Below are positions 1 to 13,895 of a stretch of DNA of 14,479 nt, piece by piece; the stretch's first letter is position 1, and each line of letters begins with the position of its first letter. Both the position numbers and the translations under genes were made by a program. The DNA comes from Bdellovibrionota bacterium (GTDB lineage: Bacteria > Bdellovibrionota_C > UBA2361): positions 1 to 14,479 of the forward strand of contig JBILDU010000080.1 in assembly GCA_044352465.1 (NCBI GenBank), read 5' to 3'. Below the pieces are notes generated by a model, which ran no database searches, had not been told where the DNA came from, and worked only from the letters and a program-made list of their open reading frames with translations.

Positions 1-206
1 TAAGAGCCTCTTCAGCTTCCGGTTCTCGTCCTCAAGGCCTTTCAGCTTGCGTAGGTCGGTGCTCGTCATCCCTTCGTACTTCTTTTTCCAGCTGTAGTAC
101 GTCGGCTCACTCACTCCGTGCTTTCGGCATACCTCGGCAACTTTGCCGTAAGCTACGCTTCCTGGAGAATCTTCACTATCTGATCCTCCGTAAATCGCTT
201 TCTCAT
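1..206 (-). pseudogene. IS3-family transposase OrfA (HTH), frameshifted
   Basis: MRKRFTEDQIVKILQEA stops at TAG (155-153). Homology resumes in a shifted frame as GKVAEVCRKHGVSEPTYYSWKKKYEGMTSTDLRKLKGLEDENRKLKRLL, a typical OrfA HTH plus leucine zipper. A one-base loss near 145-155 would explain it; a sequencing error cannot be excluded. Confidence 0.85.
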
Positions 207-267
207 CTCGTCCTCCTGTTAAAGAGGACTATTCATCATCCCGTAGCTATTTCAGGGGGGCAGGGCA
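1..267 (-). mobile_element. IS3-family insertion sequence (IS407-group-like), left end only; the rest lies outside the window
   Basis: The minus strand starts 5'-TGCCCTGCCCCCCTGAAATAG at 267, a TG terminus resembling IS3/IS407 ends. It is followed by AGGAGG (217-212) and an OrfA-like reading frame from ATG 206. Confidence 0.85.
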
Positions 268-327
268 AACCCACTTATCCTCATCCTTCAGCGCCTCGAT
301 GAGCGCAGGCACGACGCTGTCCGGCTG
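268..327 (-). pseudogene. HEAT (PBS-lyase-like) repeat gene fragment abutting the IS end
   Basis: The minus strand reads QPDSVVPALIEALKDEDKWV and ends exactly at the IS terminus. This matches the AVPALIEALKDEDxxVR repeat consensus. An in-frame TAG lies a few codons upstream. Confidence 0.6.
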
Positions 328-369
328 GCGTGAGGTTTGGTTGCGCTAATCAGGGACAGCAGGCCAAGG

Positions 370-714
370 TCATGGTGATCCGCTGACCAAAACGTTAAGC
401 ACAAGCAGAATAAGGGCAGGGAGCATCTGAAACAGATTGTCCCCGATGCGAAAGCGCACGAGGACCCCGAACACCATCAGCAGAGCTAAGCTTGCGGCGC
501 TCAAAACTCTTAGCGGTTCGTAAAAAAAACCAACTATAAGCCCGAGCGCGCCCGCGATCTCAAGAGCCCCGGTAAGTTTCCTTAACTTAGGAAGCCTATA
601 ACGCTCAAACTCAAGCCGAATCACACCGGAAACGAAACAAGAGATTCCATAGCCAAGAAACGCAATAATTGAGAGCCCGTGGCAAAAGGTGTGAAAAGCA
701 GAATATGTGAACAA
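370..714 (-). CDS. DoxX-like small membrane protein
   Basis: 114 aa with about 4 hydrophobic segments and the motifs EFERYRLPKLRKLTGALEIAGALGL and LMVFGVLVRFRIGD. The TTG start is uncertain. Confidence 0.75.
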   Translation of the reverse strand: MFTYSAFHTFCHGLSIIAFLGYGISCFVSGVIRLEFERYRLPKLRKLTGALEIAGALGLIVGFFYEPLRVLSAASLALLMVFGVLVRFRIGDNLFQMLPALILLVLNVLVSGSP

Positions 715-810
715 ACCAAGTCTCTAGGTTAAATTTAATCCTTGCCTTTGAGCGGAGAGGATAGCAGGATCTTGTCAGTCTCCCCCCCCCTTTGTTTTCG
801 CAGGAATATT

Positions 811-1167
811 ATGTTCGTGCAAATTCTTCAGATTGTTGTGGCCCTCGGTCTTCTAAACGTATGGCTTGTGCGCGCGAACCTCGCCACCGCGTATCGCGGG
901 GGAGAGGCGAAAAATCTTCGGGAAGAGTTTGCCGTCTACGGGCTTCCCGGGTGGTTCTGCACGGTGGTGGGAGCTTTAAAAGTTGGCTCAGCGTTGGCGC
1001 TTCTTATTGCCCTGTGGATCCCCGAGCTGCGCCAGCCAGCAGCTGCACTGATCGCCGCTCTTATGATCGGTGCGGTATCGATGCATGCAAAGGTCAGAGA
1101 TCCGATCTCTAAAACGCTGCCCGCGGCTGCGATGTTAGCGATGAGCGTTGTCCTGTGTTTGGCTTAG
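811..1167 (+). CDS. DoxX-like small membrane protein
   Basis: ATG 811 follows AGGA (802-805). Motifs LNVWLVR, YRGGEAKNLREEFAVYGLP, VGALKV and MIGAVSMHAKVRDP are typical of DoxX-like proteins. Confidence 0.8.
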   Translation: MFVQILQIVVALGLLNVWLVRANLATAYRGGEAKNLREEFAVYGLPGWFCTVVGALKVGSALALLIALWIPELRQPAAALIAALMIGAVSMHAKVRDPISKTLPAAAMLAMSVVLCLA

Positions 1168-1294
1168 TGACGTCTTGGTTTAGTTGGTTCTGAAGCCCAG
1201 ACAATCCGCAATCAGACTCCGCTGGCAGGGCCCAGTGACGGCAACTAGTTTCATAAGGGGTCCCCGTTTTAGTTCGAGGAATATCGCGCAAAAA

Positions 1295-1400
1295 AACGAG
1301 ACTCGTTAGAAAAACCCGCTAACGAGGGGCCAATATACGAAGATCTCGTAGGGTCAGGTGACCGGGGGCGCTATAGAGGAATCATCTGCTAACGAGTGTC
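1295..1400. repeat. Cluster of inverted/direct (CT)AACGAG motifs
   Basis: AACGAG-A-CTCGTT at 1295-1307; CTCGTTAG 1302-1309 inverted to CTAACGAG 1319-1326; TACGA-AGATC-TCGTA at 1337-1351; CTAACGAGTGTC 1389-1400 matches the reverse complement of 1298-1309 at 11/12 positions. Confidence 0.55.
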
Positions 1401-1785
1401 CGAGGCCCGCTGCCGGAGGAGTTCTTTGAGCTCTTGAGTCCCTCGACGAACTAGTGCGCCGGTAGAGAGACTGGGACGTGTCGGCTAGAGGGGATTATCA
1501 AAGCCGCCCCAGCCTGCTTCCCTACTCTCTTCGTATGGGGGCCTAAAACATGCCTCGTCCTAGCTAGCTTAGGTCACTAAAGCTGACTCTGTAGTAAGCG
1601 CGATGACGAGTGCGGGATTAAGCCTGCGGATATCTTTTACTCATTCCAACACCCGACCAAAACTATAGCACAGGTGTCTAAGATACGGGGGGAACATCAG
1701 TCCGATTCAGTGACGGGGAGCTGTTCTGAAGAGCTCTTGTGAGATTCCCAGTGTGTCATGGTCTCTCTCATGGTAATCAGGGTCT

Positions 1786-2064
1786 ATGAGCCTACTCTTC
1801 GAATGGGATGCTTCCAAGGCCCGGTCAAATCTTAAAAAGCACGGAATCTCCTTTGAAGAGGCTACGACTATTTTCGGAGATCCAAGAGCGATTACCATTG
1901 AATCTTCGGTAGTTAGCGGTGAGAAGAGGCTGGTTACCATCGGTCGCTCCGCCTCCGGGCGCTTTGTGATAGTGGTAGTACACACCGATAGAAATGATAG
2001 AATACGAATTATAAGTGCTCGGCCTGCCAGCCGAGCGGAGCGAAATCAATACGAGGGCCGATAA
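1786..2064 (+). CDS. brnT: BrnT-family type II toxin (ribonuclease)
   Basis: 92 aa with the BrnT signature FEWDASKARSNLKKHGISFEEA, GEKRLVTIG, and RIRIISARPASRAERNQYE. Confidence 0.92.
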   Translation: MSLLFEWDASKARSNLKKHGISFEEATTIFGDPRAITIESSVVSGEKRLVTIGRSASGRFVIVVVHTDRNDRIRIISARPASRAERNQYEGR

Positions 2065-2065
2065 C

Positions 2066-2275
2066 ATGAAGCAGGAATATGACTTCTCGAAGGGTGTGCG
2101 GGGCAAATACTTCAAGCGCTATCAAGCAGGTTCGAATGTTGTCATCCTCGATCCTGAGATCGCCGCTGTATTCAAAGATTCCGAGTCAGTAAATGATGCC
2201 CTGCGCTCTCTCATGCGCGCTGCGGGGCATAACAAGACACTGCTGCGGACGCGCAAAGCGCGCCGCAAAGCGTAG
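2066..2275 (+). CDS. BrnA-like antitoxin, partner of BrnT
   Basis: ATG lies 1 nt after the toxin stop. MKQEYDFSKGVRGKY...VILDPEIAAVFKDSESVNDALRSL is typical of small proteins encoded after brnT. Confidence 0.8.
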   Translation: MKQEYDFSKGVRGKYFKRYQAGSNVVILDPEIAAVFKDSESVNDALRSLMRAAGHNKTLLRTRKARRKA

Positions 2276-2283
2276 CGTTATCT
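2227..2283 (+). other. Integron attC-like recombination site (57 bp)
   Basis: R'' GCATAAC (2227-2233) and R' GTTATCT (2277-2283) flank the imperfect palindrome TGCGG-A-CGCGC-AAA-GCGCG-CCGCA, which has one unpaired base. The L boxes (ACTGCTGC / GCAAAGC) are partly degenerate. Confidence 0.7.
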
Positions 2284-2340
2284 CTCTAGTATCTTCATAT
2301 GCCACAGCCCGAACAAAATCGCCGTGAAGTGTAATTACAG

Positions 2341-2523
2341 GTGGCAACTCGCGCTTACACTGATGCCGACTACCCCGCCATTGCTGACATTCTCGACAAG
2401 GCAAAATTAGTTGACCCCGAACGGGATAACCGAGAGTGTCTCGCTCGTAAAATCGAAAAAGATCCCGGCTCTATTTTCGTCGCGACAACTTCCGAGGGGT
2501 GCGCGTTAACGATACGGCTCTAG
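2341..2523 (+). pseudogene. N-terminal fragment of a GNAT acetyltransferase (YpeA-like)
   Basis: TRAYTDADYPAIADIL...RECLARKIEKDPGSIFVA resembles the GNAT N-terminus (IRPY..D..AV..LW...DIERKL..DPDLFLVA). The acetyl-CoA-binding motif A is absent and the frame runs into the end of trbI. Confidence 0.55.
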
Positions 2524-3654
2524 CACCAAGTCCTTATTTACGAAGATCGAGAACCTCTTTCCTGGCTCGATTTCGATAGTGGGCTGAATATTAAGATTCT
2601 TCCTCGCTATCTGTTGCCCCACATCGTCGACATTCATCGCAAACCCTTCTGCTCCAAGTTGGCCAAGGCTTGGGTCCACGGTCCTACTCCCCCCTTGGGC
2701 CACTCTCGAACCAGCGCTTAACACGGAGCTCACCACAACGCCGCTTAAAAGTTTTAGGTAGTGGTTATTAACCTTGTCAGCGAGCCCTGCATACCCCGAC
2801 ATATCCACTCCGGGCATCCCCTCTAACGACAGCGATTTACCGTTCGGAAAGAGAAGCCTCGTCCACACGATTAACACCCGCTCTTGGCCATACCCGATGC
2901 GACTATCGTACTCACCGACGATCTTCGTTCCCTGCGGAATGAGAAGATACTTTCCGGTGACCGAATCAAAGGTATTTTGCGACACCTGGCCAAGGATCTG
3001 GCCCGGAAGGTCGCTATTGATTCCAGTGATGAGCACACCGGGTATCTGTGTGCCCGCCATAACCTGATACTCAGTGACGGGGGAGCGAAGACGCTTTGAA
3101 AGAACCTCGTCGCCGCTGCGTCCATTAGTGACAAATGAGCGCTTACTCTCTTGGTCCGTCCCTGAAGTCCCAAAGCTTTCCCCCCTCTCCCCCATTTCCC
3201 CCTCTTTTAAAGGGTCGAGAGAACCATCCACCGCCCGCTCCCTCGTGGGTGGAGCCCTGTTCCCCCTTCCTATATCGCCACGAACCGGTACGAACACCTC
3301 TTGAAGGCGGGTTTGGAGAGCCCGCTTCTTTTTATTGAGACGCTCCATGTGCTCAAGCTTCATAAACTCAGCACTCATCCCATCCTCAACCGCACTCGCC
3401 CCCTCGGACGGCGGAAGGAGTGGAAGTGGCGGAGCCTCTTTCTTCATCTCATAGGTGCTTGGAAGACTTAATACAGCGCGTGATGGTAACGCTGGAGACG
3501 GTGGCTTTATCGCTTCTGTGGCCACGGCTTTGTCTGCCCCATCGATAAAGACGAACGCGCCGATGAGTACAATCACACCGAGGACAAGAGCGATCGCCCG
3601 TGCGTTAAGCCGTAGCCCTGGCGTGATACCTGTCTCTTTTATCTTTATACTCAT
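2506..3654 (-). CDS. trbI: TrbI/VirB10 type IV secretion core protein
   Basis: 382 aa with an N-terminal TM and Pro-rich linker. The conserved C-terminal domain includes AGTQIPGVLITGINSDLPGQI, LLIPQGTKIVGEYDS, GQERVLIVWTRL, GYAGLADKVNNHY and NIQPTIEIEPG. Confidence 0.93.
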   Translation of the reverse strand: MSIKIKETGITPGLRLNARAIALVLGVIVLIGAFVFIDGADKAVATEAIKPPSPALPSRAVLSLPSTYEMKKEAPPLPLLPPSEGASAVEDGMSAEFMKLEHMERLNKKKRALQTRLQEVFVPVRGDIGRGNRAPPTRERAVDGSLDPLKEGEMGERGESFGTSGTDQESKRSFVTNGRSGDEVLSKRLRSPVTEYQVMAGTQIPGVLITGINSDLPGQILGQVSQNTFDSVTGKYLLIPQGTKIVGEYDSRIGYGQERVLIVWTRLLFPNGKSLSLEGMPGVDMSGYAGLADKVNNHYLKLLSGVVVSSVLSAGSRVAQGGSRTVDPSLGQLGAEGFAMNVDDVGQQIARKNLNIQPTIEIEPGKRFSIFVNKDLVLEPYR

Positions 3655-3657
3655 ACG

Positions 3658-3885
3658 CTACCCAAAAATACGGTCAAATAGGGACTGCTCAAAATCCTCG
3701 CGGCGAATTCGGACCCGCTTTTTGCCGATTCTGAGCTCCGCCTCATCAAATAATCGGTCAACGATGTAACTACCGTCTTTAAGCCGGTAATTTACGAGCA
3801 CGGGCTCATTGTCCTCGATAACAAATAGTGGTGGTGCCTCATTCACCTTCATGGAAGGAGACACACCTGCGCTTCGCGCCGACAT
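3658..3885 (-). pseudogene. trbG: C-terminal fragment of TrbG/VirB9
   Basis: EAPPLFVI...LVNYRLKDGSYIVDRLFDEAELRIG is the TrbG C-terminal signature, with the stop 3 nt before the trbI ATG. Only about 68 codons are homologous; the 5' part is missing (breakpoint ~3865). Confidence 0.85.
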
Positions 3886-3897
3886 CGACGCGGCCGT

Positions 3898-3921
3898 TCT
3901 CAGATGGGCTCTCAGATGGGC
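3898..3921. repeat. Perfect 12-bp tandem duplication TCTCAGATGGGC x2
   Basis: 3898-3909 and 3910-3921 are identical. Confidence 0.9.
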
Positions 3922-3929
3922 AAGGCGAG

Positions 3930-5732
3930 CTAGTGAGCCGACGAAATACCAGGTGTCGCCACCGGTGGAGCGACCCAGGTGAGCGGCATCGCTACATGCT
4001 CAAAACCAGCAAGGAGGCGCTGCTTTTCGGTAAGAGAGGTCTCGTCATCGGCGCCAAATACAAGCTCCACATCAGCCCCTCCGAGGGCCACACCCACCAA
4101 TGAGCTACTCAAGGCGAGCTCACGTTCGTCGACCCGAACTGACGGTACGTTATCGAGAAACAGCCGCGCTACGAGCATCGCCCGAAGTCTCGACTCAGGG
4201 TCGAGTATCCGTCGCTTCGACACGACGATATCAAAGGAAAGATACGCGAACCCAGGGTTCTCATCTTGCAACGAGCGAATTTTCTGAAGGTGTACGAGCC
4301 GGTCCTCCCACGTCTCAAGAGAGGACAGCGTCAAGCTACACACCGATCCGGCACCGTAACGATGCACCCATTTAACCGCGTTGATCCATTCCGCCGCCGC
4401 GGTACCATCGCCCTGCTGATGTCGCTGACGCAACCGATCGATCAACACCCCTCCCCCCTCAGGCCGAATTCCCGTCAACCCGGCGGTGACCAGCCGACTA
4501 ATCACTTGCTCGGGAGGAATCCCCTCACGAACCGCGAGAGTAAGGATTTCTCCCACCGAGAACCCCTCTACCGGAAGGGCAGTCTCACGCCGAAGCCGCA
4601 CGATCAGCTGCTCACTCTCAGCGAGACCTTTTTCAGCCCCCCCGAGCTGGGGCAACCGAATGCAATTCGGCTTCTCTCGTTCGAGGATCGGAAAGACCTC
4701 CCGTAACGCCCGCCCACCCGCAACATACCGCTCAAGCTCGTTGACCGTCGGTGCAAAAACTTTAAAGACTCGCCGATCAGCCGCGAAGCGGCTCCGCAAG
4801 ACCTCCGCCGCAAGCCCTAGGTCGGGCAACCCAGCGCGGCGGGCGAGGCGTATCCCCTCCCGCAAACTCAGCCGACGACCATCAACGACATCTTGAAGGA
4901 GCTCGCTCACTCCGCGAAGTTTGATCTCATCAGTCGGCTTACGACTCAGAAGAGAGAACGTAGCGCTCCGGTATTCGGTCTGCGGAAGTAAGTTGAGTCG
5001 ACTCGCCCGACGACAAAACTCGCGGTAGCCCGCCAACTCCGCCTCATCAAGATAGAAAAGATGGCGTTCCCGAACAAATTTGGCGTAGACCTGCTCCTGA
5101 GAAGTGAGCAGGGTCTCCCGCGGTGCCGACAGCGCGCACCGCGCCGCGGCAGCGCGATGACACACCTCGTTAAACAACTGATGTTGCTTCATCGAGAGCA
5201 CTCCGGGACGCATCGCCCAGATGAGAAAGACGAACGGGGAACCGGTCAGAGCATGCCACTCAGTGACCAGATCGTGGCGAACCGCAAACCCCTGCACCCG
5301 CGAATGGGTCGCCTCAGCTCGCACGAGTACCCCTTCATGTGGCCGCAGATCGCTCGGGGATATATCGTGAGGCACCCGCACTAAGCGAGGTGATAGGCCC
5401 CACTGCTCCCGGAGCAACACTTTCAAAAGATAGGCGGAGCAACACGAACCCTCGTAAAGATATACCGCGTCGAGGCGGTTAATCGGCTCATTCGCGCAGA
5501 GCATAAGCGCGGAGCGCTGTTGACATCCGAAACCGAAATCGAGCCCAACATATCCACCGTGAATCGCGAATTCACTCGCCGAGATGAGCGCAATATCGAC
5601 CTCCCCCTCGTGTAGGCGACGCCGATTCTCGACCGGGTCGTTCTCCTCGAAACGGACAAAGGGCAGCTCTTGCAGGAGTCGGTACGGCTGACACGCCGCA
5701 TACGCCACACTCGCGACCGCTAACTTTCTCAC
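3930..5732 (-). CDS. MqnA-like (chorismate dehydratase fold) plus MqnC-like (CofH/MqnC radical-SAM barrel) fusion, catalytic motifs degenerate
   Basis: The N-domain has LHEGEVDIALIS and DLVTEWHALTGSPFVFLIWA (MqnA DLG.EW...TGLPFVFA.W). The C-domain (~4910-3930) has GRRLSLREGIRL, GFSVGEI, RLVTAGL, ETWEDRLVHLQKIRSLQDENPGF and ARLFLDNV (MqnC/CofH). There is no CxxxCxxC. The start is likely GTG 5732 after GGTGAGG (ORF track gives 5738). Confidence 0.8.
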   Translation of the reverse strand: MRKLAVASVAYAACQPYRLLQELPFVRFEENDPVENRRRLHEGEVDIALISASEFAIHGGYVGLDFGFGCQQRSALMLCANEPINRLDAVYLYEGSCCSAYLLKVLLREQWGLSPRLVRVPHDISPSDLRPHEGVLVRAEATHSRVQGFAVRHDLVTEWHALTGSPFVFLIWAMRPGVLSMKQHQLFNEVCHRAAAARCALSAPRETLLTSQEQVYAKFVRERHLFYLDEAELAGYREFCRRASRLNLLPQTEYRSATFSLLSRKPTDEIKLRGVSELLQDVVDGRRLSLREGIRLARRAGLPDLGLAAEVLRSRFAADRRVFKVFAPTVNELERYVAGGRALREVFPILEREKPNCIRLPQLGGAEKGLAESEQLIVRLRRETALPVEGFSVGEILTLAVREGIPPEQVISRLVTAGLTGIRPEGGGVLIDRLRQRHQQGDGTAAAEWINAVKWVHRYGAGSVCSLTLSSLETWEDRLVHLQKIRSLQDENPGFAYLSFDIVVSKRRILDPESRLRAMLVARLFLDNVPSVRVDERELALSSSLVGVALGGADVELVFGADDETSLTEKQRLLAGFEHVAMPLTWVAPPVATPGISSAH

Positions 5733-5744
5733 GCCCACCTCACC

Positions 5745-6797
5745 CTATGATTTTCCCCGCCACGAGCGCTCGTGCGACTGCGACTTCGATTCGGGCGCCT
5801 GAGTCGGCACCGCTTTCTGCAATTCGACCAACTGCTGGAGCTGCAACGACTGCCGGGTGGTTTCATCGATCGTACCGAAACCAAAATCGTTCGCTCCACA
5901 CAGGTGGGCTACCTTAAAGAAGTCGATTGAGAGGTACCGACTCGAGGCCCGTCGCCGAGACACGCTCGGTAACGCAAGGGTTCCCACCGCCAACATGCGC
6001 AACAACATCAGGTCGAGACCCGCGCCCCGGAGGGGAAAATCGCCGCAGCTCCGACTCAACCCGGGAAACCACACGCTGACGAGACCGTCGCGACCGCTCA
6101 CTGCGGCTATCGCAGCGATATGCTCAGCGAGGGCCGCCGCGTTGCTAAAACGATCGAGCGCCGTGCAAAAGCTCTGCCCCAACCCAACTGAATTCACCTC
6201 GGTCAAAGCCGTGAAATCCCGGCACGCGCGGAGCCGCTTGATCCCTGCCTCGCGAAGACGTCGCACCACTTCGCTCAGCGTCAGATTTTCGAGGGCCTTA
6301 CTGCGCCGCCCCTGGGCTTGGAGCCACGCCAAAATATCTTCAGCCGCTGGACCAACGAGGGTCAGCCCCTCGCGTGCCCTCGCAATCGCGGCGATGCGCT
6401 CTTCAAGACCACTCCCGAGCTCAGACAAATCGACCTGATCAAGCAGCACCTCTAATTCGGGGTGTTTGATTTGAGCAAGATAGCCGATCGGGTCTGGCGA
6501 ATCCTCAGTCAACGAAACTGCCACGATCGGTGTCGGTGCTATCTGCGGCGTGGCCTGGCTACCCAACTCAACAAGCTTCATCAACACGGCCAGGGGTGCC
6601 ACGGCGATGAGCCGCTCGATATCAGCTACGGCGAGCATCCCGCGCGCTACTATCCGTTCTCGGACCGGAGCAAAACCGAGCTCTTTGATCGCGCGCTCGA
6701 TAAAATCATTCGCCGGAATCGGCACGGGGAGACACCCCAGCGTCTGCACCGCTACTCGCGCACCACCGACGATACCGAATCGCGCGAGTTTGCCCAC
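5745..6797 (-). CDS. Degenerate MqnE/CofH-like protein lacking the radical-SAM cysteine motif
   Basis: LGFAPVRERI, LSEVVRRLREAGI, LLRMLAVGTLALPSV and VAHLCGANDFGFGTIDE correspond to MqnE/CofH segments (GL.PI.EKV, VL..LK.AGL, LR..AVSRL.LDN, AL.YGA.D..GT..E). It sits directly upstream of the mqnA-mqnC-like gene. The start is uncertain. Confidence 0.65.
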   Translation of the reverse strand: MGKLARFGIVGGARVAVQTLGCLPVPIPANDFIERAIKELGFAPVRERIVARGMLAVADIERLIAVAPLAVLMKLVELGSQATPQIAPTPIVAVSLTEDSPDPIGYLAQIKHPELEVLLDQVDLSELGSGLEERIAAIARAREGLTLVGPAAEDILAWLQAQGRRSKALENLTLSEVVRRLREAGIKRLRACRDFTALTEVNSVGLGQSFCTALDRFSNAAALAEHIAAIAAVSGRDGLVSVWFPGLSRSCGDFPLRGAGLDLMLLRMLAVGTLALPSVSRRRASSRYLSIDFFKVAHLCGANDFGFGTIDETTRQSLQLQQLVELQKAVPTQAPESKSQSHERSWRGKS

Positions 6798-6828
6798 GCT
6801 AGAACTCCGACCAAAAAGTTTTTTTCAT

Positions 6829-6849
6829 ATATCAGAGCCGCTCTGTTAT
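6829..6849. promoter_or_regulatory. Candidate operator palindrome upstream of the mqnE-like gene
   Basis: ATATCAGAGC-C-GCTCTGTTAT has 9 of 10 arm positions symmetric and lies about 30 bp upstream of GTG 6797. Confidence 0.35.
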
Positions 6850-7190
6850 CTCACCCGCGAAGCCTCTGGCAGGTGAAAGAATTAGTGGACGGGATACGAG
6901 GAACCCTTTCTCTTAATCATCATCCAGTCCAGCCCAACGACTCTCCCGATAACCTGAGGAACGCCGTACCAGCGGCGGCCTGAAGGGCCTACGCGAGCTT
7001 CCCGGGAGGGAACGAGCTCATTGCCCATCTCAGCCTGACCGCATACCTAGAATCGAAAGAGCGAGAAAACGAGAAGGCAACGCCGTACCGCGTGAGACCA
7101 CGCCCTGCGCACGCTGTGCAGGACATTCGACTAGTTGCCATCGACCTGCGGGCATGAGCCATTCCGAGCGTCTGAACGCAGACCCTCAGA

Positions 7191-7218
7191 TAGCTATTTG
7201 CACCTAGCTATTTGCACC
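7191..7218. repeat. Perfect 14-bp tandem duplication TAGCTATTTGCACC x2
   Basis: 7191-7204 and 7205-7218 are identical. Confidence 0.9.
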
Positions 7219-7336
7219 GAACTCCCTGACACGCGAGGGCTACGCTGCACGGGCCTCAAGCAAGGCACCCGTTCCATGTTTCCCTCGGGAGGCGAAGGTA
7301 CCAAAGACTCTCCCATTACACAACAAAAGCTTGGGA

Positions 7337-8041
7337 TTACGGGGCAGCGGGGCGACACCCCTCATAAATATACGCTATCCCCCCACTCAGCCCATCGCAG
7401 CGGGTCGCTTCAAACCCAACCTCACGCAAAATAGCCTCGAAATCGCCCCCACAGGGAAAAGATTTGGCCGTTTCCGGAAGATAGGTGTACGCCGCACGGT
7501 TACCGGTCAAGCAACCACCGATCCAGGGCATGAATACCTTTGAGTACCAATTATATACCGCCCGAAATGGAGCCCAGGTCGGCTGACCGAACTCTAGGAT
7601 CACCAACTTGCCGCCGGGCAGCATAACCCGGTGAATCTCAGCGAGCCCACGCCGAAGGTCTTCGAGATTACGAACCCCAAAGGCAACGGTTACCGCCGCA
7701 AAGGTCGCATCCGCAAAAGGGAGATTCAACGCGTCACATTGAACAAGCGGAGCGCTTGACCGACCGCGCACCCGTCCGCACTCGAGCATCGGTAGACAGA
7801 AATCGCCGCCCACAACCCCGTCCGCCCGCGCCTCGAGAAGGGGCAAGAGGTCCCCCGTTCCGGTGCAAAGGTCGAGCACCGGCGCGGCCCCCTGGGGCAC
7901 TCTGCGCGCTACCCGATATTTCCACAGGTGGTGAATCCCAAAACTGAGGACGGTATTCGTCAGGTCGTAACGCTCAGCTATCGCGCCGAACATCCGCCGA
8001 ACTTCGGTGCCCACCACACGGGGCGAGGAGGTGCTATCCAT
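7337..8041 (-). CDS. menG: Demethylmenaquinone methyltransferase (MenG/UbiE)
   Basis: Contains VRRMFGAIAERYDLTNTVLSFGIHHLWK, SAM motif I VLDLCTGTGD, DALNLPFAD, AFGVRN, PGGKLVILEF and AYTYLPET. The start is taken as ATG 8041; the ORF is open to 8089. Confidence 0.92.
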   Translation of the reverse strand: MDSTSSPRVVGTEVRRMFGAIAERYDLTNTVLSFGIHHLWKYRVARRVPQGAAPVLDLCTGTGDLLPLLEARADGVVGGDFCLPMLECGRVRGRSSAPLVQCDALNLPFADATFAAVTVAFGVRNLEDLRRGLAEIHRVMLPGGKLVILEFGQPTWAPFRAVYNWYSKVFMPWIGGCLTGNRAAYTYLPETAKSFPCGGDFEAILREVGFEATRCDGLSGGIAYIYEGCRPAAP

Positions 8042-8268
8042 AGGCGGCTTTCTATACCCCATCCGGACCAGATTAACCACTCCGTTCACCCAGATCGACT
8101 TGGCCTGACTCGCAGGTATGCTACGATATCACCTGCGTGGGCGCAGAAAGCAATTTTTGAACAAGCAGGAGCCTGCAGATGAACCTAACGCAGAAATTGC
8201 TCTCATTCCCCCCGGAAGACCGCCTTTCGGGACGAACTTTTTGGACGGCGCACTAAACGGAGTCCGTC

Positions 8269-10728
8269 ATGCCTCCTCACACTCTCCCCTCACACGCTCG
8301 GGTCGTAGTTATCGGCGGTGGGATCATCGGCTGCTCAGTGGCCTACCACCTGAGCAAGGGCGGATGGAAAGATGTCGTCTTGCTTGAGCGGGATAAAATC
8401 ACCTCGGGCACCACCTGGCACGCTGCCGGACTCATGGTAACGTTCGGCTCAACATCCGAAACCTCAACCGAAATCCGTAAATATTCAAAAAAGCTTTATC
8501 GCGAACTCGAAGCTGAGACCGGACAAGCCACCGGCTTCAAGCCGGTGGGATTTATCGAGGTAGCCGCCGACACCGATCGTCTGGAGGAATATCGTCGCAT
8601 CGCAAGCTTTAACCGCCTGTGCGGGATCGATGTCGAGGAGATTTCCCCCACCGAGATCGCCCACCTTTTCCCGTACGCCAAGGTTGATGATCTTTTGGCG
8701 GGGTTTTACGTCAGAGACGATGGTCGGGTAAATCCGGTAGATGTCACGATGGCGCTTGCCAAAGGGGCCCGTCTCTATGGCGCGCAGATCTTCGAGGGGG
8801 TCCCCGTCACCACGGTGCTCCAGCGCCACGGAGCCGTTACCGGAGTCGTAACCCCGAGCGGGACGGTGACCGCCGACTACGTCGTTAACTGTACCGGAAT
8901 GTGGGCTCGCCAACTCGGTGAAGAGCTGGGTGTGACGATTCCAAATCAAGCCGCTGAGCACTACTACCTCATCACCGACGACATTCCGGGCATACCGCGC
9001 GATCTTCCGGTGCTTGAGGATCCCGCGGCATACGGCTATTACCGCGAGGAGGTCGGCGGACTCATGATCGGCCTTTTCGAGCCGGTTGCAGCGCCGTGGA
9101 AAATAGAGGGCATCCCCAACGATTTCTCCTTCGGCGATCTCCCCCCCGATTGGGAGCGGATGACCCCCTTTCTTGAGAGAGCGATGTCGCGTGTACCGGC
9201 ATCTCTCGACGTTGGAATCCGTAAGTTCTTCTGTGGACCGGAGAGCTTTACCCCTGATTTACGCCCGATCGTTGGCGAGGCACCCGAGCTCCGCAACTAT
9301 TTCGTCGCGGCGGGGATGAATTCAATCGGGATCCTTTCCGCTGGCGGACTCGGTCGGGTTCTCGCCCACTGGATTATGCACGGAACCGCCGATGTTGACG
9401 TCACCGGATTTCATATCGATCGGTTCCACCGCTACCAATCAAATCGGGCGTATCGCCGCGAACGCACCATCGAATCGCTCGGATTAGTTTATAAATGCCA
9501 CTACCCCACGAGGGTTGCGGAGACGGCCCGGGATGCGAAGCGCTCGCCGTTTCACGCCCGCCTCACGGAGGCAGGCGCGTATTTTCGAGACGTGAGCGGA
9601 TGGGAAAGCCCTGATTGGTACGCGCCGCCCGGCATCACCCCGCAGGTCGAGAGACTCTCCTGGGGACGGCAGAATTGGTTCCCCTATTGGGCATCGGAGC
9701 ACCACGCCGCGCGTGAGAGCGTGATTATCATGGACATGAGTTTCATGTCGAAGTTTCTGGTCCAAGGTAACGATGCGGGTCGACTCTTGGACTATATCTC
9801 AGCAAATAAAGTCAACGGTGCCTGCGGCACGATTACCTACACCCAATGGCTGAACCAGGACGGCAAGATCGAAGCCGACCTCACCGTCACCAAACTCGCC
9901 GAGGATCGCTTTCTTGTTGTCGTCACTGACACCATGCACAGACACGCGGAGACGTGGCTCCGCCGGCACATCCCCTCCGATGCTCACGCATTTGTGACCG
10001 ACGTTACCTCCGGATTTGGCCAACTCAATCTCCAAGGTCCCCGCGCGCGCGAGCTCCTCCAAGAGCTCACGTCGGTCGATCTTGCGGACACGGCGTTCCC
10101 TTTCCGCGCAGCTCAAGAGATCGACATCGGGTTCGCTCGTGTCCTCTGTATCCGCATCACCTATCTCGGCGAGCGCGGCTTCGAACTCTACATCCCGGCG
10201 GAACAGTCGGTGCACGTCTACGACGCGATCGTACGGGTCGGGGTCCGTTACGGATTACGTCATGCCGGGCTCAAGGCGCTCTCAAGTCTCCGGCTCGAAA
10301 AAGGCTACCGCGATTACGGGCACGACATCGACAATACCGATAATCCCTTCGAGGCTGGACTGGGATTCGCGGTCGACCTGAAGCGTCCCGACGACTTTAT
10401 TGGGCGAGCTGCCGCAGAGCGAATAAAAGCTCGGGCACCCTACCACCGCCGCCTCGCCCAGATATTCGTTTGCGATCCCGCACCGCTCCTCTTCCACGCT
10501 GAGGTGATTTTTCGCAACGGTCAGCCGGTAGGATATGTCCGGGCCGGCTCGTACGGTCATACCCTCGGCGGTGCGGTGGGCCTCTTTATGATTGAGGCCG
10601 GCGAGCCGATCGATACCCCGTATATCGAGACGGCGTCGTGGGAGGTGGAGATCGCTGGCAAAAGATACCCCGCGCGGGTATCACTCAAGCCCCTCTATGA
10701 CCCGGAGATGCGAAAAATAAAGGGCTAA
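8269..10728 (+). CDS. GcvT-family FAD oxidoreductase (dimethylglycine/sarcosine dehydrogenase-like)
   Basis: 819 aa with Rossmann VVIGGGIIG, the covalent-FAD-type motif GTTWHAAG, GPESFTPD, and a C-terminal folate-binding GcvT domain (TYLGERGFEL, LRLEKGYRDYGHDI). SD GGAG at 8259-8262. The substrate cannot be determined from sequence. Confidence 0.92.
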   Translation: MPPHTLPSHARVVVIGGGIIGCSVAYHLSKGGWKDVVLLERDKITSGTTWHAAGLMVTFGSTSETSTEIRKYSKKLYRELEAETGQATGFKPVGFIEVAADTDRLEEYRRIASFNRLCGIDVEEISPTEIAHLFPYAKVDDLLAGFYVRDDGRVNPVDVTMALAKGARLYGAQIFEGVPVTTVLQRHGAVTGVVTPSGTVTADYVVNCTGMWARQLGEELGVTIPNQAAEHYYLITDDIPGIPRDLPVLEDPAAYGYYREEVGGLMIGLFEPVAAPWKIEGIPNDFSFGDLPPDWERMTPFLERAMSRVPASLDVGIRKFFCGPESFTPDLRPIVGEAPELRNYFVAAGMNSIGILSAGGLGRVLAHWIMHGTADVDVTGFHIDRFHRYQSNRAYRRERTIESLGLVYKCHYPTRVAETARDAKRSPFHARLTEAGAYFRDVSGWESPDWYAPPGITPQVERLSWGRQNWFPYWASEHHAARESVIIMDMSFMSKFLVQGNDAGRLLDYISANKVNGACGTITYTQWLNQDGKIEADLTVTKLAEDRFLVVVTDTMHRHAETWLRRHIPSDAHAFVTDVTSGFGQLNLQGPRARELLQELTSVDLADTAFPFRAAQEIDIGFARVLCIRITYLGERGFELYIPAEQSVHVYDAIVRVGVRYGLRHAGLKALSSLRLEKGYRDYGHDIDNTDNPFEAGLGFAVDLKRPDDFIGRAAAERIKARAPYHRRLAQIFVCDPAPLLFHAEVIFRNGQPVGYVRAGSYGHTLGGAVGLFMIEAGEPIDTPYIETASWEVEIAGKRYPARVSLKPLYDPEMRKIKG

Positions 10729-11018
10729 CCGCGGCTACGTTGAAGTAACGCCGTGGGAGACCACCCCACCACCTCAGCTCGAAGGCCCCGACTACGAGAG
10801 ATCCGTTTTGATTTTGAGCTGTAGCCTGGCCTCAAAGTGATATGCCAGAATATCGGTGCGCGGTCCGGCCATCAGGGATGGAACTCACAGAGAGCGAGCG
10901 GTGGGTAGTCCCGCCACTCCTCCCCGGTGAAAGCCTTTCGAGACAAACGACGCGCTGGGGCTGCTGCGTTTTTGACCGTGGCTCCGTTTTTACTGCCGCC
11001 CCACCGAGTGAACGACCG

Positions 11019-11876
11019 ATGAAAAATCCACTGCCGGCAATCGCCCGAACGCTCCCGATAGTCATCGGTCCAGCTTTCTTTCTATTACCTCCTGATACGA
11101 ACGCAGCGCTGGACTATGCCCGCCGGCTCCTCTATTTCGCCCTGCTGTTTGGAGCGGTCGGTGCGGTGAAGTTCCTGCTCATCCGGATGTACGGACAGGA
11201 CCTCCCCCTCACCACTGTTCAATCGGTTGAGCATCCGACGGCGTATCCCAAGCGTCCACTCGTTCATCGCCGCCGCGAGATTGTCGAAGTACTCGCCTTG
11301 ATCGGCGCTATTCTGGCGATGATCGGCCTTCTCCAAGCGGTCAAGGCGACCATGCCCACCGAGTTCTTCACCTTGGCCCTTGGAGCGATCTTCTTCGGTG
11401 CAGTTGAGCCTCGACTCGCCAGCTTGCGGTGGCCGGTCAGTGCCGCAGGTGCCAGCTTTATCGCCGCTTCCACGGTGAGCGCCCTCAGTCTCTTTCTTTC
11501 GACCGGTCAGTGGCTCTGGCAAACCACAGGGGTAAGCCTCACGTGCGGCTTTCTCATGGCGGCGCTCTCACTCGCGACGAGCATTGAGGGTCTACCAACC
11601 CCACCGCCGCGAGATCGAAAGATAATAAGTCGTATCGCGACCATAGGGATAGCGCTCAGCCCCATCACTCTGGGTGTCTTAGTTCAGCTCAAGGCACTTG
11701 GCCCAGCCTATCTGCTCACTTTCATAATTTTACCCCTCCTCTCGCCCGCGCTCAACCAACTGAAGTGCTACGAAAAAAACGGCGATATTCCGCGGAAGAT
11801 CTCGATTTCGGTGGCCGCGGCGAACCTTCTCGTCCTTGTGATCGTGTGTGGGGTAAGTATATTCTACCGCCGGTAA
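11019..11876 (+). CDS. Polytopic membrane protein resembling MenA/UbiA prenyltransferase but lacking the Asp-rich motifs
   Basis: 285 aa from ATG 11019 with about 8-9 hydrophobic segments. ARTLPIVIGP resembles MenA RPKTLP...P; FLSTGQWLWQTTGVSLTCGFLMAALSLA resembles YVQTG......AS.P.GLL..AIL; YLLTFIILPL resembles LL.LL.LPL. The membrane-protein call is solid; the MenA ancestry is moderately supported. Confidence 0.55.
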   Translation: MKNPLPAIARTLPIVIGPAFFLLPPDTNAALDYARRLLYFALLFGAVGAVKFLLIRMYGQDLPLTTVQSVEHPTAYPKRPLVHRRREIVEVLALIGAILAMIGLLQAVKATMPTEFFTLALGAIFFGAVEPRLASLRWPVSAAGASFIAASTVSALSLFLSTGQWLWQTTGVSLTCGFLMAALSLATSIEGLPTPPPRDRKIISRIATIGIALSPITLGVLVQLKALGPAYLLTFIILPLLSPALNQLKCYEKNGDIPRKISISVAAANLLVLVIVCGVSIFYRR

Positions 11877-11957: not shown

Positions 11958-12726
11958 ATGACCCGTCGAACCCCCTTCGCCCCCATCATCGCACTCACCT
12001 CCTTTATCCTTATCGGTAGTCCGGCGTGGGGTGCGCCTAAACCAGCGAGTGCGCAGGCTGAGAATGACGCCTCGAGTTACAAAGCTAACGCTCTTTCGAT
12101 CGAACTCAACGAGAAAGCGGTCCTAGCGGTTAACGCCCGGGATTTTGCCGGAGCAGAGGATCTCTTTAAGCGCTCACTCGCAGCAGATTCAAGAAATGTG
12201 ACCGCGGTCGTGAATTTAGCGGCGATGTATCTGACCAACAAAAAAAATCCTGCGGCAATTGCTCTCCTCGAGGAATACACGAGCAAGTATCCCGAGGAGG
12301 CATCACTCCAGGCTCGGTTAGGCGATGCGTATTTCGCCTCAAAGCAGGTCAAAGAAGCCACCACCGCTTACGAGCGCGCTCTGAAGATCGATCCGCGTTA
12401 CCCCAACGCCTCCGCTCGGCTTGGAACACTTTATACCCTGAGTCGAAGAGGAAGATCCGAAGAACCCCCAAATCCTCTCCAGTTTGAGCTCTATTTTGCT
12501 GGCGAACGGCAAGCCGGAGATGGCGGTGAGCACAGCGAAACGTGCGCTCCAGATTAAGCCGACCAAAGAGCTGTATGTGACCCTCGGCTCGGCCTATGAG
12601 GCGCTCAAGGATGTTAAAAATTCAGTCATCGCCTTCGAACGAGCCCGCGACATGGGAGACAACTCCACCGAGCTCAAAGCGAAACTCGAGACCCTGCGTA
12701 GCTCACTCGATAAGGCCGCGTCTTAA
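11958..12726 (+). pseudogene. Exported TPR-repeat protein, frameshifted by an internal deletion near 12445
   Basis: Signal peptide (MTRRTPFAPIIALTSFILIGSPAWG) followed by exact 34-aa TPR units. After LGTLYTLSR the repeats continue in another frame (EEDPKNPQILSSLSSILLANGKPEMAVSTAKRALQIKP...) to TAA 12726. Confidence 0.8.
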
Positions 12727-13081
12727 TCGGATCAGCCCACACACGACGGCGGGCGTGCCAGCCGACGCGCGAGAATAGGCCCGTTGACTGGCAGCATTGT
12801 TCAGTGGCCCGTCCGGTAGGTTATTTCACCGGACACTGATTTGGCGCACTCAACATACGCGCGGCCAGGATGGCCGCACAGATACCGTAGCCAAACTTAG
12901 GTATCAGGCCTCACCCTGGACCTCGGCGTGTGCTCAGTCCAAAGAGACGCCGCTGCTCAGGTAGTTACACAGCGAAGCCCGCCCCTCTCTGGGGCTGGCG
13001 GGAGAAAATCGATCTTTCTTGGCAACACTCGCTGAAAAACTCCGATGACATAGCTAAGTCCGTCTATGTATCGGAGAGAAA

Positions 13082-13804
13082 ATGGAAGCACTTATTCTAC
13101 CGGGAAAGGTATGCCAACCCACCGACTTTGAGGCCTTGAAACTTGCGATCGAATCAGCGCCCACCTATGCGTCGGCGATTCAACGCATTTTCGCTGACCA
13201 GCGCCGTCGACTGACTTTTATCACGATGGCTGAAGAGCCGGAGCCCCTTGTACTCGGCATCGTTCGTTTTCCGACCGGCTCGGAGGCTTTCTTTTCGGTC
13301 CCCCGCCCCATCGCCGTAGGCACAACTCCACTCTTCGCTCCTGCCGCGGGAATACGTCAACTTGCCGACTCAGCGGAGATCGATATCGACACGACCTGGG
13401 TCAAAAACCGAGACCGAAAATTCCATATTACGCGGTGGGGCCGCAGGAAAAGCGAGATTATGAAGGTGGCACCCCGCTCGCTTGAATCGGTTATCCTCAG
13501 TTATGCTCTTTCGCCCTACGGCCAGGTCGACCTCTCATTCGATATCCGGATCTCCCCCCCAAATCGACTACTCCGCGGACTTCGTATCGATCTCTCACAC
13601 TTCGGCGAACCTAACCGGCCCGGGATCGGAGAGACGATGTGGGTCGATTGGGAGGAACTGACCGCCTCAACGCTCGAAGGCGGGCCAGAGGAGCAGGCGA
13701 ACCGTTTGGATCCGCGCCAGCTTTCCACTTCGAAAAAGCCGCGGTCACTGCGGACTCAAGCAAAAGACACGACCAAAGGGGCATTCCCGAGCGGGCTGTC
13801 GTGA
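13082..13804 (+). CDS. Hypothetical protein
   Basis: 240-aa ORF with GGAG just upstream of the ATG and a globular-looking composition. It fills the gap between recognised genes. No family recognised. Confidence 0.6.
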   Translation: MEALILPGKVCQPTDFEALKLAIESAPTYASAIQRIFADQRRRLTFITMAEEPEPLVLGIVRFPTGSEAFFSVPRPIAVGTTPLFAPAAGIRQLADSAEIDIDTTWVKNRDRKFHITRWGRRKSEIMKVAPRSLESVILSYALSPYGQVDLSFDIRISPPNRLLRGLRIDLSHFGEPNRPGIGETMWVDWEELTASTLEGGPEEQANRLDPRQLSTSKKPRSLRTQAKDTTKGAFPSGLS

Positions 13805-13895
13805 CTTATCGATAGGAGCAGGCAGACAGGGGCGGCGCGGCACCACAGCCAGCCGACTGCCCCTTCACGACGCTTTGGGATGGCGGCGTTGTCCC

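Follow-up and report, generated by a model that had tools for sequence, protein, structure and literature searches.

A conserved pair of futalosine-enzyme paralogues without the iron-sulfur cluster loop outlives the futalosine pathway in Bdellovibrionota

Contig JBILDU010000080.1 (C86) of the Bdellovibrionota genome G000, an assembly of 3.13 Mb in 170 contigs, was analysed over its entire 14.5 kb, and this whole contig of 14,479 nucleotides is what we call the window. It carries the gene of a fusion protein, in which an MqnA-like Venus-flytrap domain precedes a barrel of radical-SAM type, next to the gene of p350, a stand-alone barrel resembling MqnE; menG and the gene of a membrane protein, p344, lie nearby (Table 1). 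Both barrels lack the [4Fe-4S] cluster motif throughout their families, both genes are under purifying selection, and the pair persists in genomes in which the futalosine route to menaquinone has given way to the classical Men route. We see about an even chance that p350 and the fusion form a selected, heteromeric, non-radical module that arose from futalosine enzymes and now serves menaquinone metabolism as an accessory, in a role independent of that pathway. An initial annotation of the window had described four catalytically dead homologues of quinone-biosynthesis enzymes around an intact menG, and profile, hhalign, structure-model and motif checks agree with it on all five.

We started with the fusion. 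Its front part matched PF02621 at 71 bits, against a gathering cut-off of 26, and a profile of the fusion family matched the MqnA structures 2i6e (5.5e-19) and 7ahr (4e-15), while no MqnD entry in the PDB was matched at E<=0.01. Judged by these profile matches, the flytrap domain is of the chorismate-dehydratase (MqnA) type and not of the MqnD type. The rear part was recognised by the curated models for MqnC (TIGR03699, 83.9 bits against a cut-off of 428.1, only model positions 115-300 of 342) and MqnE (TIGR03700, 68.9 bits against 434.6), both of which aligned to fusion residues of about 383-569 with only their back two thirds. A profile built from 15 family members matched the MqnE structure 6xi9 at E 5e-23, and the stretch of 6xi9 that holds the cysteine motif fell opposite a gap in the family alignment. 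The motif CX3CX2C, or its relaxed form CX2-12CX2C, was found in none of the 29 fusion-family members, compared with seven of seven canonical MqnC and MqnE proteins. The R..H..LR..QD and LDN motifs of the C-terminal part of CofH, MqnC and MqnE are kept, and a TIM fold of radical-SAM type is predicted for the barrel.

The 29 members share 36-70% identity and come, like the relatives of the other window proteins, from records labelled Bdellovibrionota, Bdellovibrionales, Oligoflexia or 'Deltaproteobacteria' metagenome-assembled genomes (MAGs). Searching again with the family profile gave these 29 once more, plus three MqnC proteins, PF02621 is the only precomputed Pfam annotation on 28 of them, and an alignment of 15 sequences (33-70% identity) contains many invariant columns. 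A second, partial copy of the barrel occurs elsewhere in G000: a frame of 186-197 amino acids (C45:54833-55312, corresponding to locus L026:4771-5331) is 47% identical to residues 438-584 of the window fusion and 52% identical to the copy of a same-genus genome. It is a truncated second copy of the C-terminal part of the dead barrel; the N-terminal remainder was looked for and not found.

A study of Streptomyces coelicolor MqnA (ScMqnA) calls Asn17 and Ser86 'absolutely conserved' in MqnA and reports that S86A is nearly inactive, that N17A keeps full kcat, that N17D alone yields a chorismate hydrolase, and that catalysis is substrate-assisted (PMC9672406). In the window fusion the equivalents of both residues are Ala, and both columns vary across the family, with S, N, F, L, A, R and G all occurring at the position of Ser86. 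In place of the canonical active-site strand of MqnA the family has its own invariant sequence, EFAxHGGYVGLDFG.

The p350 gene lies six bases upstream of the fusion gene. Alone, p350 gave a weak CofH_C match (E 0.007) and 15.3 bits against the curated MqnE and MqnC models. Its family profile aligned with MqnE/MqnC over 281 columns (hhalign probability 98.1%, E 1.2e-13) and with the barrel of the fusion at a probability of 95.8%. An AlphaFold (AF2) model of p350, with a predicted local distance difference test (pLDDT) of 84 and a predicted template-modelling score (pTM) of 0.80, had MqnE 6xig as its top Foldseek match (E 1.1e-9, template-modelling score (TM) 0.6), followed by BioB, HydE and ThiH. 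The model points to a TIM barrel of radical-SAM type with a CofH_C C-terminal region. Neither form of the cysteine motif was present in any of the 11 members of the p350 family. Because the [4Fe-4S] cluster loop is lost from both barrels, the chemistry of MqnE or MqnC should be impossible in either of them. The folds put forward in the initial annotation were thus recovered, for p350 (best match MqnE 6xig) and p344 (UbiA superfamily) from models and for the fusion barrel from sequence only. As a side observation, 11 of the 30 ESM Atlas clusters nearest to p350 share CofH_C as their sole common Pfam family, three of them with proteins of 276-301 amino acids that are commonest in Acidobacteriota; cluster-less barrels like MqnC and MqnE may be a widespread, undescribed class.

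When p350 and the fusion were modelled together from their two family alignments, the complex scored 0.82, compared with 0.01 for the best of three controls. Of 157 solved complexes 116 attain this mark, as do 2 of 215 mismatched pairs. The runs agreed in at least 68% of contacts, with partner pLDDT of at least 78, and placed the interface between residues 278-316 and 513-584 of the fusion barrel and residues 30-77 and 255-299 of p350, so that the N-terminal-helix and C-terminal surfaces of one barrel meet their counterparts on the other. The prediction supports a heterodimer of p350 and the fusion.

Next, we compared the window with a same-genus genome (L008, L036) by the Nei-Gojobori method, at a dS of about 1.5-2.2, which is saturated. 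The fusion as a whole (600 codons, 70% amino-acid identity) had a dN/dS of 0.10, with the flytrap domain as its most constrained part (0.06) and the barrel at 0.09-0.16, and p350 (292 codons, 74% identity) had 0.11. These ratios are like those of menG (0.09, 83% identity) and of a neighbouring comparator gene (0.085, 75% identity); p344 is 57% identical between the two genomes, with a pN of 0.28 and saturated pS. The frames of the fusion and p350 are intact in four genomes (G000, G006, G013 and G023). Since both same-genus genomes lack UbiX at the same place, the constraint would have acted in the absence of the futalosine enzymes, and since the motif losses are common to the whole family, including its futalosine-type genomes, they predate the switch of pathway. 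On these comparisons simple decay of the fusion and p350 is rejected, and the earlier argument that the genes are not decaying holds for their deep family conservation as well as for their dN/dS of about 0.1.

We then examined the surroundings of the pair in relatives. In 14 loci from public genomes, a p350 homologue precedes the fusion in every case in which the flank is long enough. Typically the operon reads menG-UbiX-p350-fusion-MqnP and is divergent from genes for a p344-like protein, a tetratricopeptide-repeat (TPR) protein, a canonical MqnE (499-506 bits) and glycyl-tRNA synthetase (GlyRS). Relatives with this operon further encode an MqnC that is close to canonical (410-426 bits), next to which lies the gene of a stand-alone PF02621 protein; this protein is of MqnD type (2czl at E 2.6e-50, compared with 1e-5 for MqnA). 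Given the operon and the active MqnE, MqnC and MqnD genes of these relatives, the ancestral setting is therefore a futalosine-pathway cluster with each 'dead' copy near an active relative. On a 63-kb contig of G013 the order is p390, fusion, p350 and menG on one strand (menG first to be read) and mem293, TPR and GlyRS on the other, with UbiX, MqnP and MqnE missing from their places; the same gaps are present in the window, L008 and L036. The initial annotation had suggested looking at orthologues for synteny and shared motif loss, and both were found: gene order is kept in relatives, and the cysteine motif is absent throughout (0/29 and 0/11).

In a panel of 41 Bdellovibrionota genomes (G000 and 40 relatives), full-length or near-full fusion and p350 co-occur in 11 (G000, G006, G010, G013, G019, G021, G023, G024, G030, G037 and G041). 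G026, 87% complete, has fragments of the fusion only, 29 of the 41 have neither gene, and full-length p350 was never found in the panel without the fusion. A tree of 16 fusion proteins, made to ask whether Men-type lineages kept the module independently, has an unresolved backbone with 6 of 13 inner branches open; it joins the window with L008 at 100/100, and G013 is not the window's sister, with support of only 56/81.

No canonical MqnE, MqnC, MqnD, UbiX or MqnP, and no active MqnA, was found in the 94.9% complete assembly of G000. We considered that decayed pieces of UbiX, MqnE or MqnP might survive in the gaps of the window (6798-7336, 12558-13895 and 3655-3929) and rejected this, as only the tail of the TPR gene came up in tblastn (E<=20) and blastx (E<=1). 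Contig C7 carries classical Men genes instead, encoding a MenF-like chorismate-binding enzyme, MenD (287 bits), MenB (452-496 bits), MenA (282 bits) and a MenE-like ligase; MenH and MenC were not identified in G000. This MenA is not of the paralogue type of MqnP, the ancestral neighbour of p344. G000 has changed from the futalosine to the classical Men route. Of the canonical copies that the initial annotation proposed to search for in the same genome, MenA is thus there, and MqnE, MqnC, mqnP and an active MqnA were not found.

Three of the 11 pair-bearing genomes are of Men type: G000, its congener G006 (78% complete) and G013, which belongs to another family (95% complete), all with MenD and with MenB over its cut-off and without MqnE, MqnC or MqnD. 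G023 (5 contigs, 94% complete; L028, L034) has MenA (278.6 bits), MenG, p350, the fusion and a p344 homologue, and no MenB, MenD, MqnE, MqnC or MqnD was found in it; it is either an auxotroph for 1,4-dihydroxy-2-naphthoate (DHNA) or a user of some unrecognised source of the head group. G019 (the genome of L016, 94% complete) has the fusion, p350, MqnC, MqnD, UbiX and MqnP, and MqnE was not found there, both it and TPR being missing between GlyRS and the p344 homologue. The remaining six are of futalosine type.

Nine further futalosine-type relatives (G007, G015, G017, G020, G025, G035, G036, G039 and G044) have MqnE and MqnC without the module. Each holds a single PF02621 protein, which in G007 adjoins MqnC as does the copy classified as MqnD type in G001. 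Assigning MqnA by elimination, from counts of PF02621 copies, was tried and given up, since fusion-less futalosine genomes too have one copy only, of MqnD type. A canonical MqnA was found in none of the 18 futalosine-type relatives examined, and in the nine fusion-less ones no MqnA-type homologue was found either that could supply MqnE with its substrate. We also considered the flytrap domain as a stand-in for o-succinylbenzoate synthesis (MenC/MenH) in Men-type genomes and dropped this for want of a pattern; an enolase-superfamily protein (PF13378, 141-154 bits) is present in each of G000, G006 and G013 and also in some futalosine-type genomes.

We next turned to p344, which has no Pfam or NCBIfam match. 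Members of the UbiA superfamily bind Mg2+-diphosphate through two Asp-rich motifs, NDxxDxxxD and DxxxD. PF01040 did not match the window protein and weakly matched 1 of 42 p344-family members (E 0.005); DxxxD or [ND]DxxD occurs in 3 of the 42, never at a conserved column, and nowhere in the window p344. By eye, an Arg-Pro pair follows what we take to be the position of the first Asp-rich motif. The top four matches to the p344 model (pLDDT 92) among 48,161 chains were membrane prenyltransferases of the UbiA superfamily, with 236-241 residues aligned: UBIAD1 8djm (Z 16.3, root-mean-square deviation 4.0, 239 aligned), 6m31 (Z 16.3), 4od4 (Z 15.0) and 4tq3 (Z 13.1). Foldseek E-values against UbiA-type structures were weak (0.01-0.05), and a Z of 14 can arise by chance with helical models, which makes the support for a predicted UbiA-type helical membrane fold moderate. 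The family has 202 representatives at E<=1e-3. Because it also occurs in fusion-less relatives (31 of the 41 genomes carry it, including Men-type genomes without the fusion), p344 is a separate conserved family near menaquinone genes and not a strict member of the module. One candidate homologue, L033:9927-10784, was rejected (hhalign probability 0.2%) in favour of the overlapping frame G035:C50:36068-36874.

The TPR gene had served the initial annotation as an example of real decay in the window, and it does lie in two frames: tblastn with the TPR protein of L010 found pieces at 11967-12464 and 12451-12699 in different frames. The change of frame at 12451-12464 either reflects a genuine frameshift or comes from an error of assembly.

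Table 1. Features of the window, with the evidence for each
Feature	Position	Strand	Evidence or remark
TrbI	2506-3654	-	intact
602-aa (amino-acid) fusion (P0001)	3930-5738	-	database gene calls begin 2 codons later, 600 aa
Predicted cluster-less radical-SAM-type barrel of the fusion, about residues 265-602	3933-4946	-	TIGR03699 partial match, 6xi9 alignment
MqnA-like domain of the fusion, residues 8-246	5001-5717	-	PF02621, 71-74 bits
p350 (P0002), predicted stand-alone cluster-less MqnE-like TIM barrel	5745-6797	-	hhalign, AF2 model, Foldseek
menG/ubiE, demethylmenaquinone methyltransferase	7337-8089	-	TIGR01934, PF01209
819-aa FAD oxidase/aminomethyltransferase (DAO + GCV_T) fusion, dimethylglycine/sarcosine-dehydrogenase-like	8269-10728	+	
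p344 (P0037), polytopic membrane protein of predicted UbiA fold, 285 aa from second Met	11016-11876, open frame from 10842	+	
TPR-repeat gene in two frames	11958-12726 (11958-12557 and 12484-12726)	+	Pfam TPR matches on both open reading frames
240-aa open reading frame	13082-13804	+	no Pfam or NCBIfam match
Purine-nucleoside phosphorylase, truncated by contig end	13896-14477	-	

Among the neighbours, menG has normal motifs and matches TIGR01934 at 213.6 bits (cut-off 158.35) over model positions 1-221 of 223, and PF01209 at 169.5 bits. In the window it is separated from p344 by the DAO + GCV_T gene, which we regard as a local insertion because menG and the gene at the p344 position are direct divergent neighbours in G013. 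The 240-aa open reading frame occupies the place of MqnE and GlyRS in relatives and has no similarity to MqnE. At the left end (1-3654) the G+C content is 0.51-0.54, compared with 0.57-0.60 elsewhere, and beside the TrbI gene there are two DoxX-like frames on opposite strands (370-714 and 742-1167) and a BrnT-type toxin frame (1786-2064). This end looks like the remnant of a mobile element, beginning where relatives carry MqnP and p390. Directly downstream of the cluster, six loci (L008, L009, L010, L012, L017 and L027) have a gene for an APH-family phosphotransferase-like protein of 350-390 amino acids (PF01636, E 1.6e-13; examples are L010:11033-12205, L008:2529-3638 and L027:6050-7105), and the G000 copy is on another contig (C161:1697-2791).

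Taken as a menaquinone accessory, the pair would descend from a fusion of MqnA-MqnC type and a paralogue of MqnE or MqnC. The barrels would have given up their radical chemistry with the cluster loop, and the flytrap domain, in which neither of the residues that hold chorismate in place in known MqnA is kept, may still bind an aromatic acid like chorismate or naphthoate. The complex might then deliver or sense this ligand, or organise the late steps around MenG at the membrane, with p344 and the TPR protein as possible membrane partners. Several observations weigh against this reading. The complex score was obtained with alignments of our own making and may echo the two-chain crystal entries of MqnE. 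The Men route in itself does not require the module, since 13 Men-type relatives do without it, and menG is not always adjacent, lying 67 kb away in G023 and on another contig in G010. The TPR gene, intact in L010, L012 and L027, is frameshifted in the window. Our absences are drawn from MAGs of 78-95% completeness. The label non-catalytic is taken only from ancestral-enzyme motifs that are absent, many polar residues conserved in the barrels belong to inherited family motifs and say little about function, and the flytrap domain could still be an enzyme, given the active N17A mutant and the substrate-assisted chemistry cited above. Sequence cannot tell a non-catalytic role, such as scaffolding or ligand binding, from new catalysis. 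That the pair has become a new enzyme, catalysing a non-radical reaction on chorismate, a chorismate-derived compound or a naphthoate compound, is a possibility we take seriously while thinking it clearly the less probable one; its extreme form would be an undescribed route to the head group or a salvage pathway. The invariant strand of the flytrap domain would fit such an enzyme, as would the ease with which N17D changes the chemistry of the fold (PMC9672406). So would the nearly closed genome G023, where MenA, MenG and the pair occur with neither known head-group pathway, and the lack of a canonical MqnA in the nine fusion-less futalosine-type relatives and all the fusion-bearing ones, in which some protein yet to be recognised must start the pathway. 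However, a route to the head group would be redundant in G000, G006 and G013, which carry Men genes, and the nine futalosine genomes that lack the module get by nonetheless. Nor can we point to residues that would do the catalysis, and G023 may be no more than a DHNA auxotroph, as would be plausible for relatives of predatory bacteria. A related and rather improbable idea is that p350 and the fusion serve the naphthoquinone head group as an enzyme or carrier without an iron-sulfur cluster, a third way of obtaining or handling it, which would explain both G023 and the missing canonical MqnA of the 18 futalosine-type relatives.

We also doubt that the MqnA-like domain has remained a normal chorismate dehydratase, with the dead barrel and p350 as structural baggage from an MqnA-MqnC fusion. 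Futalosine-type genomes with the fusion do have no other homologue of MqnA type, their stand-alone PF02621 protein being of MqnD type. ScMqnA remains active with N17A, and active MqnA-MqnC fusions of 632-644 amino acids are the nearest named clusters of the window fusion in the ESM Atlas. But the Ser86 column, whose change to Ala nearly kills ScMqnA, is Ala in the window and variable in the family (mutant data from PMC9672406). Moreover, 3-enolpyruvyl-benzoate would have no known consumer in G000, G006, G013 and G023, which lack MqnE, yet the flytrap domain is the most constrained part of the protein, and baggage would not hold the dN/dS measured for the barrel and for p350. In the main version of the initial annotation the proteins, without catalysis of their own, are partner subunits of active paralogues with which they share the cell, in what would be a futalosine metabolon. 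Inactive partners of prenyltransferase fold do exist (OsGRP in 5xn6, the GPPS small subunit in 3qkc and the heptaprenyl diphosphate synthase heterodimer 9kp1), and in relatives p350 and the fusion lie beside UbiX and MqnP, and p344 beside MqnE, so that the idea may describe the ancestral state. For G000 it fails: the Men genes are there instead, with no active MqnE, MqnC, MqnA, MqnD or MqnP found and no remnant of UbiX, MqnE or MqnP in the window, and in G006 and G013 likewise no active futalosine paralogues were found. The module is under purifying selection even in genomes of this kind, and the p344 family extends to fusion-less Men-type genomes, so we consider such a metabolon quite unlikely as the present role. 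It is very unlikely indeed that the genes are relics, open by chance and decaying slowly since the switch from futalosine to Men. The loss of the catalytic futalosine genes, the frameshifted TPR gene, the mobile-element remnant that abuts the cluster and the truncated barrel copy on C45 would fit decay, but dN/dS of about 0.1 over 600 and 292 codons at saturated dS, like that of menG and the comparator, intact frames in four genomes and motif losses that are family-wide and older than the switch all argue against it.

Menaquinone biosynthesis is regarded as solved, by the Men and futalosine routes, and is pursued as a drug target. That a module built from inactivated futalosine-enzyme copies is kept throughout an order of Bdellovibrionota suggests a component of quinone metabolism not described so far, be it a new enzyme or a complex with an accessory or binding role. 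It also bears on holes in pathway annotation, such as futalosine-type genomes without MqnA and a genome with only MenA and MenG, and quinone predictions that count matches to 'MqnA' or 'MqnC' would misread these proteins as pathway enzymes. Our literature search returned no description of cluster-less MqnC or MqnE paralogues or of an MqnA-like/barrel fusion. A bacterial quinone survey of 2026 describes an unexpectedly dynamic history of the Men and futalosine routes across bacteria, and the word MqnA is absent from its text (PMC13386864).

Compared with known systems, both window barrels have the TIM-barrel fold and the CofH_C-type motifs in common with MqnE (TIGR03700; Pedobacter heparinus, PDB 6xi9 and 6xig) and MqnC (TIGR03699), and differ from them in having no CxxxCxxC and a deleted cluster loop, with the fusion at 69-84 bits against cut-offs of 428-435. 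With MqnA (S. coelicolor 7ahr and 2nxo; Deinococcus radiodurans 2i6e and 6o9a) the fusion shares PF02621, the MqnA subtype and the Venus-flytrap fold family; it differs in the loss of Asn17 and Ser86, in its invariant HGGYVGLDFG strand and in the dead barrel fused to it. About 240 residues of the p344 model align with UbiA-superfamily prenyltransferases (MenA/UBIAD1 8djm, DGGGP synthase 6m31 and ApUbiA 4od4) at Z 15-16, unlike which p344 has no PF01040 match and no conserved Asp-rich motifs. Partner subunits (the Bacillus subtilis heptaprenyl diphosphate synthase heterodimer 9kp1, 3qkc and 5xn6) are also among the fold matches of p344, at Z 8.7-11; they are inactive paralogues kept as partners, a precedent from isoprenoid and quinone synthesis. 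These subunits are soluble and pair with an active paralogue, whereas G000 has no active paralogue of the ancestral type. Closest of all to the window fusion are the MqnA-MqnC fusions (PF02621 + PF04055 + PF19288, 632-644 amino acids; ESM Atlas, commonest in Myxococcota), which have the same domain order and length class and of all named clusters come nearest to it, at 0.95-0.96 on features and a structural TM of 0.55; a cluster-less 547-amino-acid cluster from Myxococcota is also among the nearest. Comparing cluster summaries, the Radical_SAM Pfam family is on 97-100% of the members of these MqnA-MqnC fusions and on none of the window fusion's family. What is new here is that the module of p350 and the fusion outlives the replacement of the futalosine pathway.

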